A stretch of DNA of 64,000 nt from an uncultured delta proteobacterium (lineage in GTDB: Bacteria > Myxococcota_A > Polyangia > Polyangiales > Polyangiaceae): positions 224,001-288,000 of the forward strand of contig CAVQUB010000003.1 of the NCBI GenBank assembly GCA_963716725.1, written 5' to 3'. Position 1 is the stretch's first letter; the number at the start of each line of letters is the position of its first letter. Below the pieces are notes generated by a model that saw only the letters and a list, made by a program, of their open reading frames with translations, was not told where the DNA came from and did not search any database. Below are positions 22,041 through 27,346 of the stretch, piece after piece. A program made the position numbers and the translations under genes.

Positions 22041-23144
22041 CTATCGCACGACGAGGCGCGCCCAGTCGCCGGTCGGAAAACTCGTCTCGTTGGCGAGAAC
22101 CGCCACGGCATAGCCGAGCCTTGGGTAGACCCGAAGCTCGGAGCGATATCCGCCTCCGCCTCCCAGGTGGTACGCGAACGGCTCCCCGCCGATCTGCCCC
22201 AGGTGCCAGCCGAGCCCGATCTCGGTTGCCTTGCCGCCGGACGTGACGAACGGCGTGAGCATGGTCGAAATCGTCGCCGTGGAGAGGAACACCCCGCCAG
22301 GCCCAAGCCCGTCGGCCAACACCATCTCGGCGAGCGCGAGCAGATCGTCGACCGGGCCGCTGAGGCCACCGTACGGCGCCCCATCGACGTCGAAGGGTCT
22401 GAGAACGCGATACGGACCAGCGCTTCCGTCAAAGAAGCGCCCATCGAGCATCCAACGTGCCGCGAGGCCCATGAAGCTCAGGCGCCGCTGGTAGCCAGTA
22501 GCCCTCTCGGATCTACCCCCGAAGGCCGAAGCTGCGCAGCCCAGGGGCTCGAGCACGTCCTTGGTGATGTGCTCTTGGAAGGTTTCGCCCGACTCGCGCT
22601 CGACGATGAGCCCGAGCAACAGGTAGCCCAGGTTCGAGTACGAGGACTTCTCGCCAGGGACGAAGGCGAGGTCGGGAGCCGTGCCGACTCGCTGCCGAAC
22701 CATGTCGGCAAGCGAGGGAGGCGGTTCGGTGGTCAAGTGGACCCACGACACGGGAATCGGGTTTCTGAGCCCCGCGCCGTGCGCGAGAAGGTGCCGCACG
22801 GTGGCGTCGCGGCCCGAGCGCGCCACCCTTACTTCCGGCAGGTAGCGGCTCACGGGGGCATCGAGGTCGATGCGCTTGGCCTCGACCAGCCGCATGATCG
22901 CCATCGCCGTGAAGAGCTTGGTGATCGAGAACCATGCGAAGGGCGTCGATCGAGAGACCGGAGTGTTGCTCCTGACATCGGCGAGCCCGGCACTTCGCAC
23001 CGTTTTCGTGCCGCCGCGCCGCAGCGTCCCTACGACGACGCCAGGCGCGTCGGTCGCGCCGGCGAGCGCGCGTTCGAGCTCGCCCACGCCTACGTTCTCC
23101 AACCGCGTTGTCGCGCACCCGAACAGGTTCATGGCGATCACCAT
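22041..23144 (-). CDS. Serine hydrolase, beta-lactamase class C/PBP family
   Basis: FSITKLF (SxxK), YSNLGY (YxN), HLGGGGGY; start uncertain (23132/23144). Confidence 0.92.
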   Translation of the reverse strand: MVIAMNLFGCATTRLENVGVGELERALAGATDAPGVVVGTLRRGGTKTVRSAGLADVRSNTPVSRSTPFAWFSITKLFTAMAIMRLVEAKRIDLDAPVSRYLPEVRVARSGRDATVRHLLAHGAGLRNPIPVSWVHLTTEPPPSLADMVRQRVGTAPDLAFVPGEKSSYSNLGYLLLGLIVERESGETFQEHITKDVLEPLGCAASAFGGRSERATGYQRRLSFMGLAARWMLDGRFFDGSAGPYRVLRPFDVDGAPYGGLSGPVDDLLALAEMVLADGLGPGGVFLSTATISTMLTPFVTSGGKATEIGLGWHLGQIGGEPFAYHLGGGGGYRSELRVYPRLGYAVAVLANETSFPTGDWARLVVR

Positions 23145-23353
23145 CGCGGCCAGCTGGTGCGGTGGAACAACTAGGAGAACGGGCTGCTCGAGAACTCTCT
23201 CGGTGATCAACCCGCCTGGATCCCGGCCCGAAGGCAAGGTGGATGTGTATCATACCAAGCACGTGATCGTGCGGTGCGGTGCGACCAGGGTCGCGGCAAA
23301 CCGCTGTCGAACGGACCGGACACAGGGCCAGCAGCAGTCGTTGGCCCGCGCGA

Positions 23354-24433
23354 TCAATTCGATCGCGTGCACATCGACACGACGAGCTCGCTGCTGAACG
23401 GGCCAGACGGCCCCTGGCCCTTCAGCCGCGCGAAGAGCAGCGGTGGAGGCTCGGGGAAGGCTGCATCCATCGGCTGCTGCGCGGGGCAGGATTCTCCCAG
23501 CAGGTCCTGGTCGCTCGTCGCGTCGACGCTGGTCGAGTGCTCACCCGTAGCCGGGATCGTGGTCTCGATCAGGTGGAGGGACCAACCGCTGGTGTCGAAG
23601 GGCGCGATGGGAGCGGAGCTGCCGAATGAATACTGAAACGGCACGATACGGATGTCGCCCGAGACCGATCCCAGCCCGGGTCCGGCCGCATGCGGGACGT
23701 GACCGTGGAGCGTCGTCATCGTGAAGGGACCCGCCGGTTGCACCATCGCGTTGCCAAAGGCCGACGGATGGGTGAGCCCGCTGTGGCATGTCAGCACCAC
23801 GCGCGGCGGCCAGGCGCTTCCGAATTCGACGCCTGAGCCGCACTTGGCCTCGAAGCTGCCGCCGTCTGCCTTGCCCTTCACGATGATTCCGTAGGGCTCG
23901 ATGCGATCGAGCTCGTCTTTGCAGCGAGTGCCGATCTCCGGCGCGGCGTCGGCGCTCGCCCACAGCTTGTAGTCCCAGGACTTCTGGGCGCCGCCGCTGG
24001 CGGTGAGGGTCTGCGCGACGCTCTTGTCCGGGCGCACCAGCTCGATGCTCTCGGGCATGAGGCAGGTGTCATTGCCCGAACTCAGGCGACCCCTCACCTG
24101 CAGGTGCGCCGGCTTGCCCGGCATCTCGAGCAACGCGAGGCTGACATCGTCGCAGAGCACCGTAACCTTGGCGCTGCCGCTCGTGGGCGTGCAATCGGTC
24201 GCGCCGCCCGTGCCGCCGAGACCCGCGCTGCCGCCGACGCCCGCACCACCGGCCACGCCACCGCTACCGCCTGCGCCGGTGCCAGCATTGCCCGTTCCGC
24301 CGGTCCCGGCGCCGGCCCCGCTGCCGCCAGCGCCGCCAGCGCCGCCCGATGCGCCGCCCGACGATCCCGAGCTGCTGCACGCAACGCCCAGGCAACACAC
24401 CAAGAGTAAAGCGACCGACTGGGCTCGGAACAT
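23354..24433 (-). CDS. Hypothetical lipoprotein with Gly-rich linker
   Basis: MFRAQSVALLLVCCLGVAC lipobox, Gly-rich stretch, Cys-containing globular part. Confidence 0.8.
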   Translation of the reverse strand: MFRAQSVALLLVCCLGVACSSSGSSGGASGGAGGAGGSGAGAGTGGTGNAGTGAGGSGGVAGGAGVGGSAGLGGTGGATDCTPTSGSAKVTVLCDDVSLALLEMPGKPAHLQVRGRLSSGNDTCLMPESIELVRPDKSVAQTLTASGGAQKSWDYKLWASADAAPEIGTRCKDELDRIEPYGIIVKGKADGGSFEAKCGSGVEFGSAWPPRVVLTCHSGLTHPSAFGNAMVQPAGPFTMTTLHGHVPHAAGPGLGSVSGDIRIVPFQYSFGSSAPIAPFDTSGWSLHLIETTIPATGEHSTSVDATSDQDLLGESCPAQQPMDAAFPEPPPLLFARLKGQGPSGPFSSELVVSMCTRSN

Positions 24434-24579
24434 GATGGGTGCGCGTCTGATGCCCCGGCGGCTCGCCGCGTTCAAGCCAACAGGTTGGCGGCTGCGCTCA
24501 AGCAAGTCGGCGGAATCACGGGGGAACGACCCGAGGAATTTTTTTGGAATAGGCCCAGCCCCTGCGCGGTTGACCCAAG

Positions 24580-24783
24580 TGAACCTGCAAGGAGGTGTCG
24601 AAGAGTCAAGAGAACAACGGCCCTGCGTGAACCTACGAGAGCGAGCCATTGCGCGCCCTCCTCCCCGAGCCCGCCCAAACGCAAAGAAGGCGCGGCCGCC
24701 ACTCTCGAAGTGGTGAGGCTCCTGTCGTCCACGCACGGCTGCTCTCAAAAACCCCTGGTGCGCTGCACCGGGGGTTTTTTTTT
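24580..24783 (+). ncRNA. Candidate structured small RNA (about 200 nt)
   Basis: Intergenic; nested complementary segments tgcgtg/cacgca, acga/tcgt, gagcc/ggctc, cgcgcc/ggcgcg, cgccact/agtggtg; ends in a terminator with 9 T; no plus-strand gene upstream to need that terminator. Confidence 0.55.
24747..24783. terminator. Bidirectional rho-independent terminator
   Basis: AAAAACCCCTGGTG-CGCTG-CACCGGGGGTTTTTTTTT. Confidence 0.9.
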
Positions 24784-24805
24784 GCGTGCCTCGGGGCGAG
24801 CGAGC

Positions 24806-27346
24806 TCACTTCCAGTCGACGAGCAGCCGACGGAGCCGGCCTTCGCTGCCAGCTCGGTCCGCGATCAACACCTCACGACCCAACAGCGCCGGCGAGATCG
24901 TGGGCGGCACCGCCGAGCTGAGGCTCATCAGTCGCACTGCAGCACTTGCCTTGCCGCCCGCCCACTCGGACGCCCAGACCCCCGCGGCTCCGTCTCTCAC
25001 GGCGTTCATCAAGACCCGACAAGCGTCGTCTCGACACTCCAGCGCGAGCGCATTCGGAGCGCTGCCGCTGAGCGGGATCGTCAGTGACTTGCCGAGGGGA
25101 CGGGCATCGGCACCGAGCTCGACGACGCGGACCTCCGCATCGCCGGACGCTCCGCTCGGGGAAACGCTCTCCTCGATCCACGCCAGCAGCGCGCCCTTGC
25201 CAACCAAGGCGAGGGCCGGCGAGCGCGAGTGCCGGGGCGTCTTCTCGACCACTTGCTCGCTGCCGACGAGGGATGCATCCGACCCTTTCAGGGCAGCGAC
25301 GTAGATGTCGCCAACACCGGGCTGGTCCTTGTCGCGCGCGTCGGACCAGGCGATGAGGGCGTCTGGTCCCCGCGCGACCAGGGCGACCTCTGCCGCGGAT
25401 CCGGCCGCGCTGGTGATGCGCTTGTCCGGGCCGGCGCTCAAGAGCATGCGGTTGATCCGCGCCGCGTACACCTCGGCATCGCCGCTCCGCTCGTCGATCC
25501 AGGCCAGCAACCAGCCGTCGCCGACGCCGGTTGCCGCCACGTCGCTCTTCTCCCCGGGGGCGCGGGTCAGCATGCGTTGCCGGAGCTTCTTGCCCTTGTC
25601 GTCCACGACCGTGACAAACACCTGCGGCACCTTGTAGTCCATCGCGGTCCATGCGAGCAGCGCGTCGGGCTGCCCGGCGGTGCTGGCCGCGAGCGCAACA
25701 CCTCCCAGAGAGCGTGCACGGATCGAAATCGTCTCTGCGGCGAGCGGCGCGCCAGACCCAGGGAGCGCTCGCACTTGGAGCAACGCTCGCGTTGGATCCA
25801 TCCGCCCGTCAGGCGCAGCTTTGGTGGGCCGCACCCAGGGCGTGCTGGGATCGAAGTAGGTGACCCACGCCGCCAGGGACGTCGGACCCACCTTGGTCGA
25901 CGAGAGGTCGGCGAGCGGATCCGTCTTTGCGATCACTTCGATGGCGGCAGCGCGGGGCGGCGGCGGGCGCCCCGCTCGGCGCGCGGCCGGCACGAAGCCT
26001 CCCCGCTTGCCCTCGGCGCGGATCGCCCACACCGGGGTGGGGTTGGTGGCTTGCGCGCCCAGCACGCGACATGGCTTCATCTCGCAGGAAAGCCCCCACA
26101 CGAGATCCGGTGCCTCGCCCCGGAGCGAGGCGATCTTCAGCGGCTCCGACGCGACCACGCGGAGGCTCGCGTCGAGCTCGACGTAGGTGGGCAAGAGCGG
26201 CGCGTCCGGGCACTCCTGCTCTTTTCGACACACCTTCGCCACGGTGAGCGCGGTGAGCCCCGCCGGAAGCGCAGCCAGCTCCGGGATCGATCCGTCCCGC
26301 ACGCCGTGGTCCAAGGTGGCTCGGGCTTCGCCCAGCTTTCCGTCGCTCGAGATGGGTGCGAGGGAGATCTTGCGACCGGTCGCCGGACGCTCGAGCAGGC
26401 TCTCCCAGGCGAGGTAGGCGCTGCCTCCCTTCTCGTGGGGTGGGACGAGACGGATCAGCGCCTGCTCGCCGATACTGTCTTCGAGGACCGTGGGCGACGC
26501 CGCGAGCTTGCCCCCGGAGTTGATCGACGCGAACCAGAGCTTCTCGTGATCGGACCAAGCCAGGAGCAGCCCTCGTTCTATCCTCACCATGTCGAGTTCG
26601 CGCACCTTCGGTGCTGCGGACGTGACTTCGACCCGCGAGGATGGCGCCCCGTGGTCGTCGAGGATCTCGAGGTGGACTCGGCCGGTTTCGCCGACCGCGG
26701 CCACGGCGGCCCCGGCGCCGAACCTCACGGCCTGCCAGGCGCGAGCATTCTTGACGAAGGGCTCGGGCTGCATGCGCTCTTGTCCCACCAGCGCGGCAAA
26801 GAGATCGGCGCCGCCCGGATTCTTCACGCCCCAGAGCGCGAGCGTGCCGCTCGACGTGGCGACCAGATCGATCCAGACGACGTCGCCAACCACTTCCGTC
26901 AGACTGACCGGTAAGCCCTTCGGTCGCCCACGCAGATCGAGCTCGAGTGAGTCGAGGACGGTGCGCCCGCCGTCCTTTCGGGTCGAGAGCAGCGCGAAAC
27001 CGGCGGGCTCTGCCTCGACCACGGCCACGCCGACTTCACCCGGCGCGTTCGAGAGGCGCAGCGGCGCGCCGCGAGGCATCCCGATATCGTCGAAGCCGAC
27101 GCCGAACCAGGCCCGGCCTTTCTCCGCGGCCTGCGCCCAGACCGCGACACCCCCGGACGAGGTCGTCGCGACGTAGGGGCCAACTGTGCCGGCGGGCACG
27201 CTGGCGAAGCGCACGCTGTCGAGGGCGTCTTTGCCCGCGGACGCGCCGGCGCTCGGAGCCACGGGCCCAGGTCGCGCCGGCTTGGCGACCTCGCTCTGCC
27301 CCGCACAAGCGCCGACGGCGAGAGCCAACATGAAGATGCAACGCAT
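24806..27346 (-). CDS. Large hypothetical lipoprotein (beta-rich repeats)
   Basis: Lipobox VGAC; recurring L-L-A-W-x-D/E strands suggest beta-propeller repeats. Confidence 0.82.
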   Translation of the reverse strand: MRCIFMLALAVGACAGQSEVAKPARPGPVAPSAGASAGKDALDSVRFASVPAGTVGPYVATTSSGGVAVWAQAAEKGRAWFGVGFDDIGMPRGAPLRLSNAPGEVGVAVVEAEPAGFALLSTRKDGGRTVLDSLELDLRGRPKGLPVSLTEVVGDVVWIDLVATSSGTLALWGVKNPGGADLFAALVGQERMQPEPFVKNARAWQAVRFGAGAAVAAVGETGRVHLEILDDHGAPSSRVEVTSAAPKVRELDMVRIERGLLLAWSDHEKLWFASINSGGKLAASPTVLEDSIGEQALIRLVPPHEKGGSAYLAWESLLERPATGRKISLAPISSDGKLGEARATLDHGVRDGSIPELAALPAGLTALTVAKVCRKEQECPDAPLLPTYVELDASLRVVASEPLKIASLRGEAPDLVWGLSCEMKPCRVLGAQATNPTPVWAIRAEGKRGGFVPAARRAGRPPPPRAAAIEVIAKTDPLADLSSTKVGPTSLAAWVTYFDPSTPWVRPTKAAPDGRMDPTRALLQVRALPGSGAPLAAETISIRARSLGGVALAASTAGQPDALLAWTAMDYKVPQVFVTVVDDKGKKLRQRMLTRAPGEKSDVAATGVGDGWLLAWIDERSGDAEVYAARINRMLLSAGPDKRITSAAGSAAEVALVARGPDALIAWSDARDKDQPGVGDIYVAALKGSDASLVGSEQVVEKTPRHSRSPALALVGKGALLAWIEESVSPSGASGDAEVRVVELGADARPLGKSLTIPLSGSAPNALALECRDDACRVLMNAVRDGAAGVWASEWAGGKASAAVRLMSLSSAVPPTISPALLGREVLIADRAGSEGRLRRLLVDWK

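Follow-up and report, generated by a model that had tools for sequence, protein, structure and literature searches.

The enterobacterial small RNAs (sRNAs) RybB, MicA, and MicL, which depend on sigma-E, form the repressing non-coding arm of the regulon of an extracytoplasmic function (ECF) sigma factor, and the target of MicL is a lipoprotein mRNA. The C-rich-loop sRNAs of Gram-positive bacteria, such as 6C and RoxS/RsaE, direct exposed C-rich seeds against G-rich or Shine-Dalgarno (SD) sites. The sigma/anti-sigma pairs SigR/RsrA and SigH/RshA respond to thiol-oxidative or heat stress. We analyzed a 64,000-nt stretch of DNA (the window; contig CAVQUB010000003.1, positions 224,001–288,000) from an uncultured member of the Polyangiaceae, a family of large-genome, natural-product-rich myxobacteria. 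Positions 24546–24783 of its plus strand contain a self-contained unit, in which a promoter is followed by a 5′ AGGAGG, a long stem whose apical loop is C-rich, a further hairpin, and a terminator with a run of 9 U. The unit is an independent, non-coding transcription unit with its own promoter and terminator. It fits none of the described RNA families and is the first example of one not yet described. On balance, we favor the reading that it produces an sRNA from a SigH/SigR-type ECF promoter, as the non-coding arm of an ECF regulon, and that this sRNA acts in trans by an exposed C-rich seed.

The unit occupies most of a 370-nt gap between two minus-strand genes, one with its ATG at approximately 24436 and the other, encoding an 846-aa predicted lipoprotein, with its stop codon at 24806. 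Its parts are listed below; homologues are those from the genus of the window.

24539–24545, plus strand: A/T-rich run (7 T) directly 5′ of the −35 element, a possible UP-like element; an A- or T-rich run is found there in 9/9 homologues
24546–24571, plus strand: ECF-type promoter with −35 GGAATA (24546–24551), a 17-nt variable spacer, and −10 GTT (24569–24571); spacing invariant in 9/9 homologues
24578–24783, plus strand: predicted sRNA of approximately 205 nt, delimited by the conservation limits, the fold, the covariation, and metatranscriptome contigs lying only inside it
24589–24596, plus strand: AAGGAGGT, the word containing AGGAGG, as read in the sequence
24590–24595, plus strand: AGGAGG, SD-like, in the 5′ single-stranded part; invariant in 9/9 homologues
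24610–24647, plus strand: 5′ strand of the outer stem P1 (minimum free energy (MFE) fold, compensatory changes, arm-swap test)
24652–24657, plus strand: 5′ strand of the inner helix, CGCGCC, which closes the C-rich loop and pairs with GGCGCG at 24689–24694
24657–24678, plus strand: C-rich core CCUCCUCCCCGAGCCCGCCCAA, the putative seed; invariant in the genus save for a 1-nt C indel
24657–24666, plus strand: CCTCCTCCCC, the C-rich word at the start of the core, as read in the sequence
24689–24694, plus strand: 3′ strand of the inner helix, GGCGCG, the partner of CGCGCC
24697–24715, plus strand: hairpin P3, CGCCACU/AGUGGUG; 3/7 pairs with two-sided compensatory changes, 93.7% of cells paired
24717–24746, plus strand: 3′ strand of the outer stem P1 (MFE fold, compensatory changes, arm-swap test)
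24747–24783, plus strand: intrinsic terminator with a 15-bp G+C-rich hairpin and a 9-T run at 24775–24783 (terminator scan)

The 5′ end of the sRNA was placed from the promoter geometry, 6–9 nt past GTT, and the 3′ end at the U tract; both are predicted. An earlier note on this DNA had proposed an independent, structured, non-coding RNA of about 200 nt on the plus strand, and this proposal is supported by the promoter, the terminator, the conservation, and the covariation. The positions that it had given for GGAAT (24546–24550), the following 18 nt, GTT (24569–24571), the 9 T (24775–24783), and a GTG frame (24579–24716) were all exact. The terminator scan agreed with its claim of an own terminator with a plus-strand U tract: the scan, which counts the first 5 T of the 9-T run as stem, gave a plus-strand site of 15 pairs followed by TTTTGCGTGC beyond the stem's own T run. 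Three terminator-like sites were present in the region, compared with 0.6 expected.

According to our model, transcription of the sRNA would probably rise when a SigH-like sigma factor is released from its zinc-finger (HxxxCxxC) anti-sigma, and, if the analogy with SigR/RsrA and SigH/RshA holds, heat or thiol-oxidative stress may be the inducing signal. Transcription would stop at the unit's own intrinsic terminator. The long co-varying stem would hold up the apical loop that displays YCCUCCC(C)GAGCC, and the most likely action of this C-rich loop is base pairing in trans with G-rich or SD regions of mRNAs. The sRNA would be the post-transcriptional arm of the ECF regulon, adjusting the translation of other genes under stress. 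That the RNA depends on the sigma factor, what induces it, where its seed lies, and how it acts are inferred from the comparisons described below.

Among described RNAs, the unit would work most like GsrN of Caulobacter. In the accessible part of the GsrN report (PMC5869019), as in the unit, the sRNA promoter has the consensus of a stress-regulon ECF sigma factor, an exposed C-rich loop is the most conserved part, and relatives were found by genome position; the loop of GsrN pairs with G-rich mRNA sites. GsrN differs in that its sigma factor is EcfG/sigma-T and not of the SigH/SigR type, and it belongs to another phylum and is about half the size. It is also processed, activates katG, and bears its loop on a 5′ hairpin, whereas that of the unit is an apical loop on a 30-bp stem. 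The likeness is functional only and is drawn from the description of GsrN. The cuckoo RNAs of alphaproteobacteria (alpha-r14, RSs0680/CcsR, and NfeR1) have in common with the unit the word CCUCCUCCC and a conserved genomic neighborhood; in the portion of PMC4615179 that was available, their expression is stress-induced and they consist of 2–4 adjacent hairpins with the motif in each hairpin loop. In contrast, the unit has one motif in an internal or multibranch loop and no tandem modules, and the word is lost outside the genus. The kinship with cuckoo RNAs that the earlier note had suggested is not supported: the single motif is not in a hairpin loop, and the cuckoo family ar14 of Rfam scored 18.4 bits against a gathering threshold of 58.8 bits.

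The sigma-E-dependent sRNAs recall the unit in that MicL has a lipoprotein target and the unit has a lipoprotein gene as its syntenic neighbor, but their sequences and folds are unrelated, their seeds lie at the 5′ end, and they depend on Hfq. The RNAs 6C and RoxS/RsaE differ in having several short hairpins and in occurring in different taxa, and no Rfam match was obtained for the unit. The actinobacterial SigH/SigR (ECF12-type) regulons share the identical promoter, a sigma factor whose best relative of solved structure is SigH, and an HxxxCxxC anti-sigma; here, however, the host is a myxobacterium, and its anti-sigma is predicted to span the membrane and extends into a long C-terminal region. 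The terms “sRNA” and “small RNA” occur 0 times in the main text of the paper on the SigH regulon (PMC4803200). We regard the unit as a new family of regulators of an already known kind. In the parts of the literature covered, no description of this RNA surfaced on Polyangiaceae/Sorangium sRNAs, ECF-sigma sRNAs, or CCUCCUCCC, and no paper on Polyangiaceae regulatory RNAs, which appear undescribed, was among the titles covered. The unit offers a testable entry point, comprising an sRNA family with its promoter type, a candidate sigma/anti-sigma pair, a conserved seed, and a conserved neighbor. It suggests a conservation of SigH/SigR-type promoter recognition (GGAAYR-N17-GTT) and of autoregulation well outside Actinobacteria, and the ECF sigma regulons with a C-rich-seed sRNA would gain a further independent example.

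We compared the promoter with published consensuses. The spacing of GGAAT-N18-GTT was invariant and the spacer sequence variable in 9/9 homologues and likewise in the units of other genera. The GGAATA-N17-GTT of the unit is an exact match to both SigH-type consensuses found in the accessible parts of the respective papers, which are actinobacterial: the experimentally derived GGAAYR-(N17–18)-GTT of Mycobacterium tuberculosis SigH (PMC4803200) and the GGAATA-N17-GTT of Corynebacterium glutamicum sigma-H promoters such as that of trxB1 (PMC10012870). The longer form GGAATAG-N16-GTT occurs at only 5 sites in the 7.9-Mb genome, including that of this unit. A second site lies 14 nt upstream of a gene for a 215-aa ECF sigma factor with Sigma70_r2 and r4_2 domains, located in the window's own genome outside the window (G000:C8:153104–153748). 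Downstream of the sigma gene lies a zf-HC2 anti-sigma gene, whose product of approximately 280 aa contains HLADCECC (HxxxCxxC) and a hydrophobic span and has a long C-terminal region; the pair spans G000:C8:~152250–153790 (locus L221). The best relative of the sigma factor with a solved structure is M. tuberculosis SigH (E = 1.8e-47, 165 bits), followed by SigE (87 bits) and SigR fragments (81–85 bits).

Orthologues of the sigma factor with 78–89% identity were present in 6/7 genomes of the genus, that of the window included, with the motif upstream in 6/6; none was found in the remaining genome, which is 84% complete. In 5/5 other genera tested, the orthologues were 72–80% identical and the motif was 35–52 nt upstream. 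In the genus, the motif before the sigma gene overlaps the stop codon of the preceding open reading frame (ORF), which could inflate its conservation there; it is clear of the stop codon in one other genus. The sigma start codon is approximately 14 nt past the −10 GTT, and the mRNA would therefore be leaderless or nearly so. The SigR/SigH-like ECF promoter that had been predicted earlier is thus strengthened by the consensus match and by a sigma gene with the same motif in 11/11 genomes checked. From the identity of the motifs, we infer that this sigma factor drives the sRNA.

We next consider the conservation of the unit. All 7/7 genomes of the genus carry it, and it is single-copy in its own genome. 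A BLASTN search over 60 relatives gave full-length homologues with 70–86% identity in 5/6 of the other genus genomes and, outside the genus, only chance pieces of 22–50 nt; the sixth other genus genome has a diverged copy that scored 51 bits with a covariance model. Conservation starts sharply at GGAATAGG and stops at the T run, and both flanks are unalignable. The covariance model R1, built from 6 genus sequences, detected in 151 family genomes only the 4 genus members sampled and 2 weak partial matches (L029 and L030; 24–26 bits), which lack the core and were treated as chance. This negative result says little, since R1 missed diverged units later found by synteny. For the exact word CCTCCTCCC(N)GAGCCCGCCC, 80 of 86 stretches of public genome contigs were fetched and 4 passed R1, which are labelled Myxococcales bacterium, Polyangiaceae bacterium (two contigs), and uncultured delta proteobacterium. 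From metagenome contigs, 80 of 104 stretches were fetched, and 4 passed R1, two of them new variants. The remaining matches of this word were attributed to chance in G+C-rich genomes.

A composite pattern (GGAAT-N18-GTT-N10-25-AGGAGG-N50-80-CCGAGCC) was searched over whole genomes with the backwards pattern as a control. It gave 24 matches in 23/383 genomes of the family, covering 8/89 genera (control, 1 match), and matched 15/401 genomes of the order, all within the family (control, 0); the 210 genomes covered from 23 further families of the order gave no match. A second pattern, which is the composite without AGGAGG and which the window's own genus is unable to match, was found in 21 genomes of 10 genera (control, 0). 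Three of its new matches are candidates only, with no AGGAGG in the 80 nt examined, where the verified units have it. With patterns this strict, all of these counts are minimum values. One genus genome gave a second composite match (L301, or G002b; G002:C4:32819–32949) without a terminator and with a different fold. It is probably a chance match, although a degenerate paralogue is also conceivable, and it was excluded from the unit counts of the strand z-score, the unpaired probability, and the arm-swap test. The RNA family is found in part of one myxobacterial family and is conserved in a group of environmental myxobacteria.

The region 24575–24785 of the plus strand folded as RNA with −87.1 kcal/mol (z = −3.19), and 0/200 shuffles were equally stable. 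The fold reproduced the stems drawn before, namely the outer stem (approximately 24610–24647 with 24717–24746), CGCGCC/GGCGCG, CGCCACU/AGUGGUG, and the terminator. The covariation and conservation to which the earlier note had looked were both present: in a model-based alignment of 9 distinct genus-level sequences, 19/33 modelled pairs showed compensatory (two-sided) changes, and 0/500 shuffles attained any observed covariation measure. The paired cells amounted to 85.7% in the same alignment, compared with 32–46% when the 3′ partners were slid by 1–3 columns. This alignment was fitted to the covariance model and so favors the structure, and the slid controls carry an equal bias. The unit is more than a chance arrangement, given its homologues, its sharp conservation limits, and its covariation. 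In an independent set of 7 sequences from 3 other genera, 11 of 37 consensus pairs were compensatory. An arm-swap test showed that the native 5′ and 3′ arms of P1 pair better with each other than with any other-genus arm in 8/13 units. The test failed in 5/13 units (G119, G076, G210, G193, and G197), for which the cutting of the arms at fixed distances is a possible cause.

The inner helix CGCGCC/GGCGCG was kept in 9/9 homologues, once with a U.G pair, and is lengthened in loci L006 (CCUC/GGGG) and L010 (CCU/AGG past one U-U mismatch). A competing inner helix, GUUG/CAAC, was broken in 3/9 homologues. Neither inner helix shows two-sided changes, and conservation is what supports the first. A hairpin is found at the P3 position in other genera too, with a different sequence. 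The extracted units share one architecture, with an AGGAGG 5′ tail, a long stem of unrelated sequence, a core-bearing apical loop beside a hairpin, and a terminator; G002b deviates from it, and four units in which no T run was found end at an arbitrary 3′ cut.

In regard to the core, the cross-genus consensus was YCCUCCC(C)GAGCC(A/G/C)(C/G)CC. Judged by these alignments, the part conserved across genera is CCGAGCC with C-rich flanks, and CCUCCUCCC is its local form. The latter is present in the genus of the window and is replaced outside it by UCUCCUCCCC, CCCCUCCC, UUCCUCCC, or CACCC. The mean predicted unpaired probability of the core was 0.61, compared with 0.39 for the whole RNA, over 23 units, in one of which the search expression took another site. 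The AGGAGG, with a mean predicted unpaired probability of 0.45, was found in most of the units of other genera. No homologue examined has ATG, GTG, or TTG at ribosome-binding distance after it; the previous observation that AGGAGG is not followed by a properly spaced start codon holds, and no conserved ORF lies behind it. The 5′ AGGAGG may serve in the binding of 30S or CsrA, in stabilization, or in pairing with CCUCC. In the units of genus g90 (L278–L280), the 5′ arm of P1 holds UUGCUGUGGCUC, which is complementary to the GAGCCA and CAGCAA that flank the CCC of the core region. An alternative hairpin might thereby form and conceal the core; it was not seen consistently in other genera.

Rfam 15 was searched with cmscan over the whole window, and 0 matches reached the gathering scores, whether 6S, Pxr, or any other family. 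This outcome answers the comparison with the 6S, Pxr, and cuckoo families that the earlier note had proposed: no family is at threshold, and the unit is no known RNA. A permissive E-value-mode scan of 24300–24950 gave 10 sub-threshold matches, which were driven mainly by the terminator and in two cases also by CCUCCUCCC. The best was NsiR1 with 30.2 bits against a threshold of 39, on the terminator only; anti-hemB scored 18.6 bits. Neither 6S nor Pxr was among the best of these matches, and membership in either is not supported.

The polarity of the promoter and of the terminator points to the plus strand. The promoter is located on this strand where conservation begins. After the hairpin, 6–9 T follow on the plus strand in 20/24 extracted units, and no T run was within the search range in the other four (G141, G211, G151, and G002b). 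The opposite-strand U run after the hairpin has 5 U here and 0–4 in the genus homologues. The automatic detection of the hairpin start failed for G197, G210, and G212, and their A counts are unreliable. The MFE z-score of the body was lower on the plus strand in 16/20 units, with a mean of −1.42 compared with −0.47. Among 22 public runs listed, 13 contain at least half of the sampled words of 24350–25000, and three metatranscriptomes contain small shares. RNA-library contigs of 153–154 nt covered 24591–24735, 24599–24752, and 24596–24744 (one per run; 3 runs from 2 studies) and left the flanks uncovered, and a DNA run from one of those studies gave a single piece, 24374–24998. The RNA contigs, which are unstranded and have no true ends, fit an abundant small transcript as a weak hint.

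Possible targets were searched by complementarity. In duplexfold calculations over 4,726 seeded sites, G+C-rich noise dominated. Exact complementarity of at least 11 nt was found at 344 sites, and the two 16-nt sites are about what a rough estimate of chance gives. Several of the top complementary sites were inside coding sequence, such as a kinase glycine loop and a Nudix box, and were set aside. The 13-nt complement GCTCGGGGAGGAG occurred 0–1 times per genome besides the sRNA gene, compared with 0–4 times for the backwards control, and the extra sites were not orthologous. These searches were weak in a 68% G+C genome without annotation. In favor of action in trans, the unit of genus g71 (loci L285–L289) does not stand beside the 846-aa gene in any of 5 loci and keeps its promoter, architecture, and core.

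Several findings tell against a SigH-driven sRNA that acts in trans by its core. The complementarity searches gave no mRNA target but only chance-level or intragenic sites, and in 10/10 cases the start region of the 846-aa gene offered the core no better pairing than the gene body did (z ≥ −0.05). CCUCC is absent from some genera, the core of G151 being CACCCGAGCC. The bare GGAAT-N18-GTT is not enriched genome-wide (45 sites, compared with 24–49 at spacings 14–23), and no regulon could be read from these sites. The genome has tens of ECF sigma candidates (49 at first look), and the link to the sigma factor consists of motif identity. Regarding the strand, the counts of G.U and A.C do not discriminate (24 and 21 on the model alignment), alifold finds G.U pairs of its own on either strand, and the minus strand folds to a lower raw energy in 8/8 homologues. 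The RNA contigs are strandless, and DNA carry-over in RNA libraries is possible. Moreover, the 846-aa gene accompanies the unit almost universally, a hint of a cis relationship for which trans action offers no explanation.

The syntenic gene was characterized as follows.

24806–27346, minus strand: 846-aa predicted lipoprotein, the convergent syntenic partner (tblastn synteny)

Segments with ...LLAW... recur in the protein, which has an N-terminal MRCIFMLALAVGAC... and for which neither a Pfam nor an NCBIfam family was found. It is present in 137/151 sampled family genomes, mostly as a single match. In tblastn searches, the gene stood tail-to-tail with the unit in 13/14 genus-level loci; the remaining locus is truncated where its contig ends. 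Among the units found by pattern, it adjoins in 6 further genera with 28–47% protein identity. We also screened 700 nt past the 846-aa stop codon on the opposite strand. In the first batch, GGAA(T/C)-N17-19-GTT was at the corresponding place in 10/26 other-genus loci, and in most of these AGGAGG follows after approximately 40 nt, along with a C-rich core and a terminator; no motif was found in the remaining 16/26 loci, one of which is only 73 nt long. A second batch gave units at 3/20 more distant loci. Units reached via the 846-aa gene adjoin it by construction and give no independent support for synteny. In genera g90 and g23 (L232, L233, L235, and L236), TTTGGCACGTTCC... is approximately 25–35 nt upstream of the aligned start of the 846-aa orthologue; it is similar to the GG element of sigma-54 promoters, and the genus of the window does not have it.

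The synteny raises the question of whether the unit is a cis-acting partner of this gene. The 846-aa mRNA would read through the hairpin and be antisense to the sRNA, and the stress-induced sRNA would alter the fate of the mRNA by duplex formation or transcriptional interference. The tail-to-tail order in 13/14 genus loci, the adjacency in 6 further genera among pattern-found units, and the mere 0–5 U after the hairpin on the gene's strand in the genus are consistent with this. However, the unit of g71 is intact away from the gene, a simple antisense RNA would require no co-varying stem and no conserved loop, and the RNA contigs end in the sRNA body and do not extend into the gene, the last being a weak hint from contigs. 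We therefore regard a cis partnership as a rather improbable explanation.

A role as a protein-binding or decoy RNA has a similarly small chance. The AGGAGG, the core, or both would bind a protein (CsrA at A/GGA, a poly-C-binding protein, or Hfq) or 30S and titrate it, or the AGGAGG would merely stabilize the RNA. The genome encodes CsrA (60.8 bits) and an Hfq-like protein (33.2 bits), the AGGAGG is genus-invariant with no start codon behind it, CCGAGCC is conserved more strictly than an anti-SD function needs, and the complementarity searches found no mRNA target. On the other hand, the unit has a single conserved GGA-type site, whereas known CsrA sponges have many, and the target searches were weak for the reasons given above. 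Furthermore, exposed C-rich loops are a common type of seed in base-pairing sRNAs, as described in the available parts of PMC5869019 and PMC4615179.

A wider version of the sRNA reading is, in our estimation, slightly less probable than either of these: a SigH/SigR thiol/heat circuit, a type studied up to now in Actinobacteria, would operate in Polyangiaceae with an ancient dedicated RNA arm, which acts on the translation machinery and stays coupled to the family-wide lipoprotein gene. The RNA carries a perfect SD element and an anti-SD-like C-rich loop and therefore could act on the translation machinery. One end would bind 30S and the other the ribosome-binding sites of mRNAs, or the RNA would switch between self-masked and open forms. 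A two-state switch had already been suggested in the earlier note, in which the seed would be masked by pairing of CCUCCU with the AGGAGG of the same RNA until something opens it; we consider it doubtful. AGGAGG and CCUCCU are conserved and are complementary over 5–6 nt, but their pairing is in no predicted fold, a linker of 14 nt would need to bridge a stem of approximately 30 bp, and some genera (G151) lose CCUCC while keeping AGGAGG. Both elements are genus-invariant, and covariation is therefore uninformative on self-masking.

It is still less probable that the conserved structure is a minus-strand 3′-untranslated-region element of the 846-aa gene. The lower raw folding energy of the minus strand in 8/8 homologues, the undiscriminating G.U counts, and the synteny would suit such an element. 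They are opposed by the SigH-type promoter with its fixed spacing on the plus strand exactly at the start of conservation, the U tract on the plus strand, the lower plus-strand z-score in 16/20 units, and the g71 units without an adjacent gene. In addition, no minus-strand terminator-like site was found at the far end of the element; the only one is an inner site of 5 pairs in the P1 arm (24633–24619). Finally, a 45-aa peptide encoded by the frame from GTG 24579 to 24716, which is open in the window, is refuted by the comparative data: the start codon is lost in 2/9 homologues (CGAAC for TGAAC; L158 and L010) and its position reads TCG in G006, the frame is shortened to 16 and 7 codons in two others, 1-nt indels shift it and change the residues wholesale in further homologues, and AGGAGG lies inside the frame and not 5′ of it. 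Conservation thus does not follow the codons of this ORF, the point on which the earlier note had made its non-coding view depend, and that view stands.

The genes on the other side of the unit were as follows.

23354–24436, minus strand: predicted lipoprotein, the left neighbor, whose signal peptide is followed by a long linker rich in Gly/Ala/Ser/Thr
22041–23237, minus strand: beta-lactamase-family (PF00144) protein gene, 196 bits, ordinary

No Pfam family was found for the lipoprotein at 23354–24436, and it has no counterpart beside the sRNA in any relative, the left neighbor never being the same. Two repeats were also observed in the genome. An identical stretch of approximately 55 nt (...GGTTCTGGTGCCCGCGGGCTCGGGTGACTATCAGCC...) is present at no fewer than 9 places, on contigs C1, C9, C10, C11, C12, and C13, and looks like the end of a multicopy mobile element. 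A 70-nt segment is repeated every ~1.7 kb, 5 times at G000:C13:119473–126299 and 2 times at C5:~794270–797763, and these recurrences suggest tandemly repeated genes or domains.

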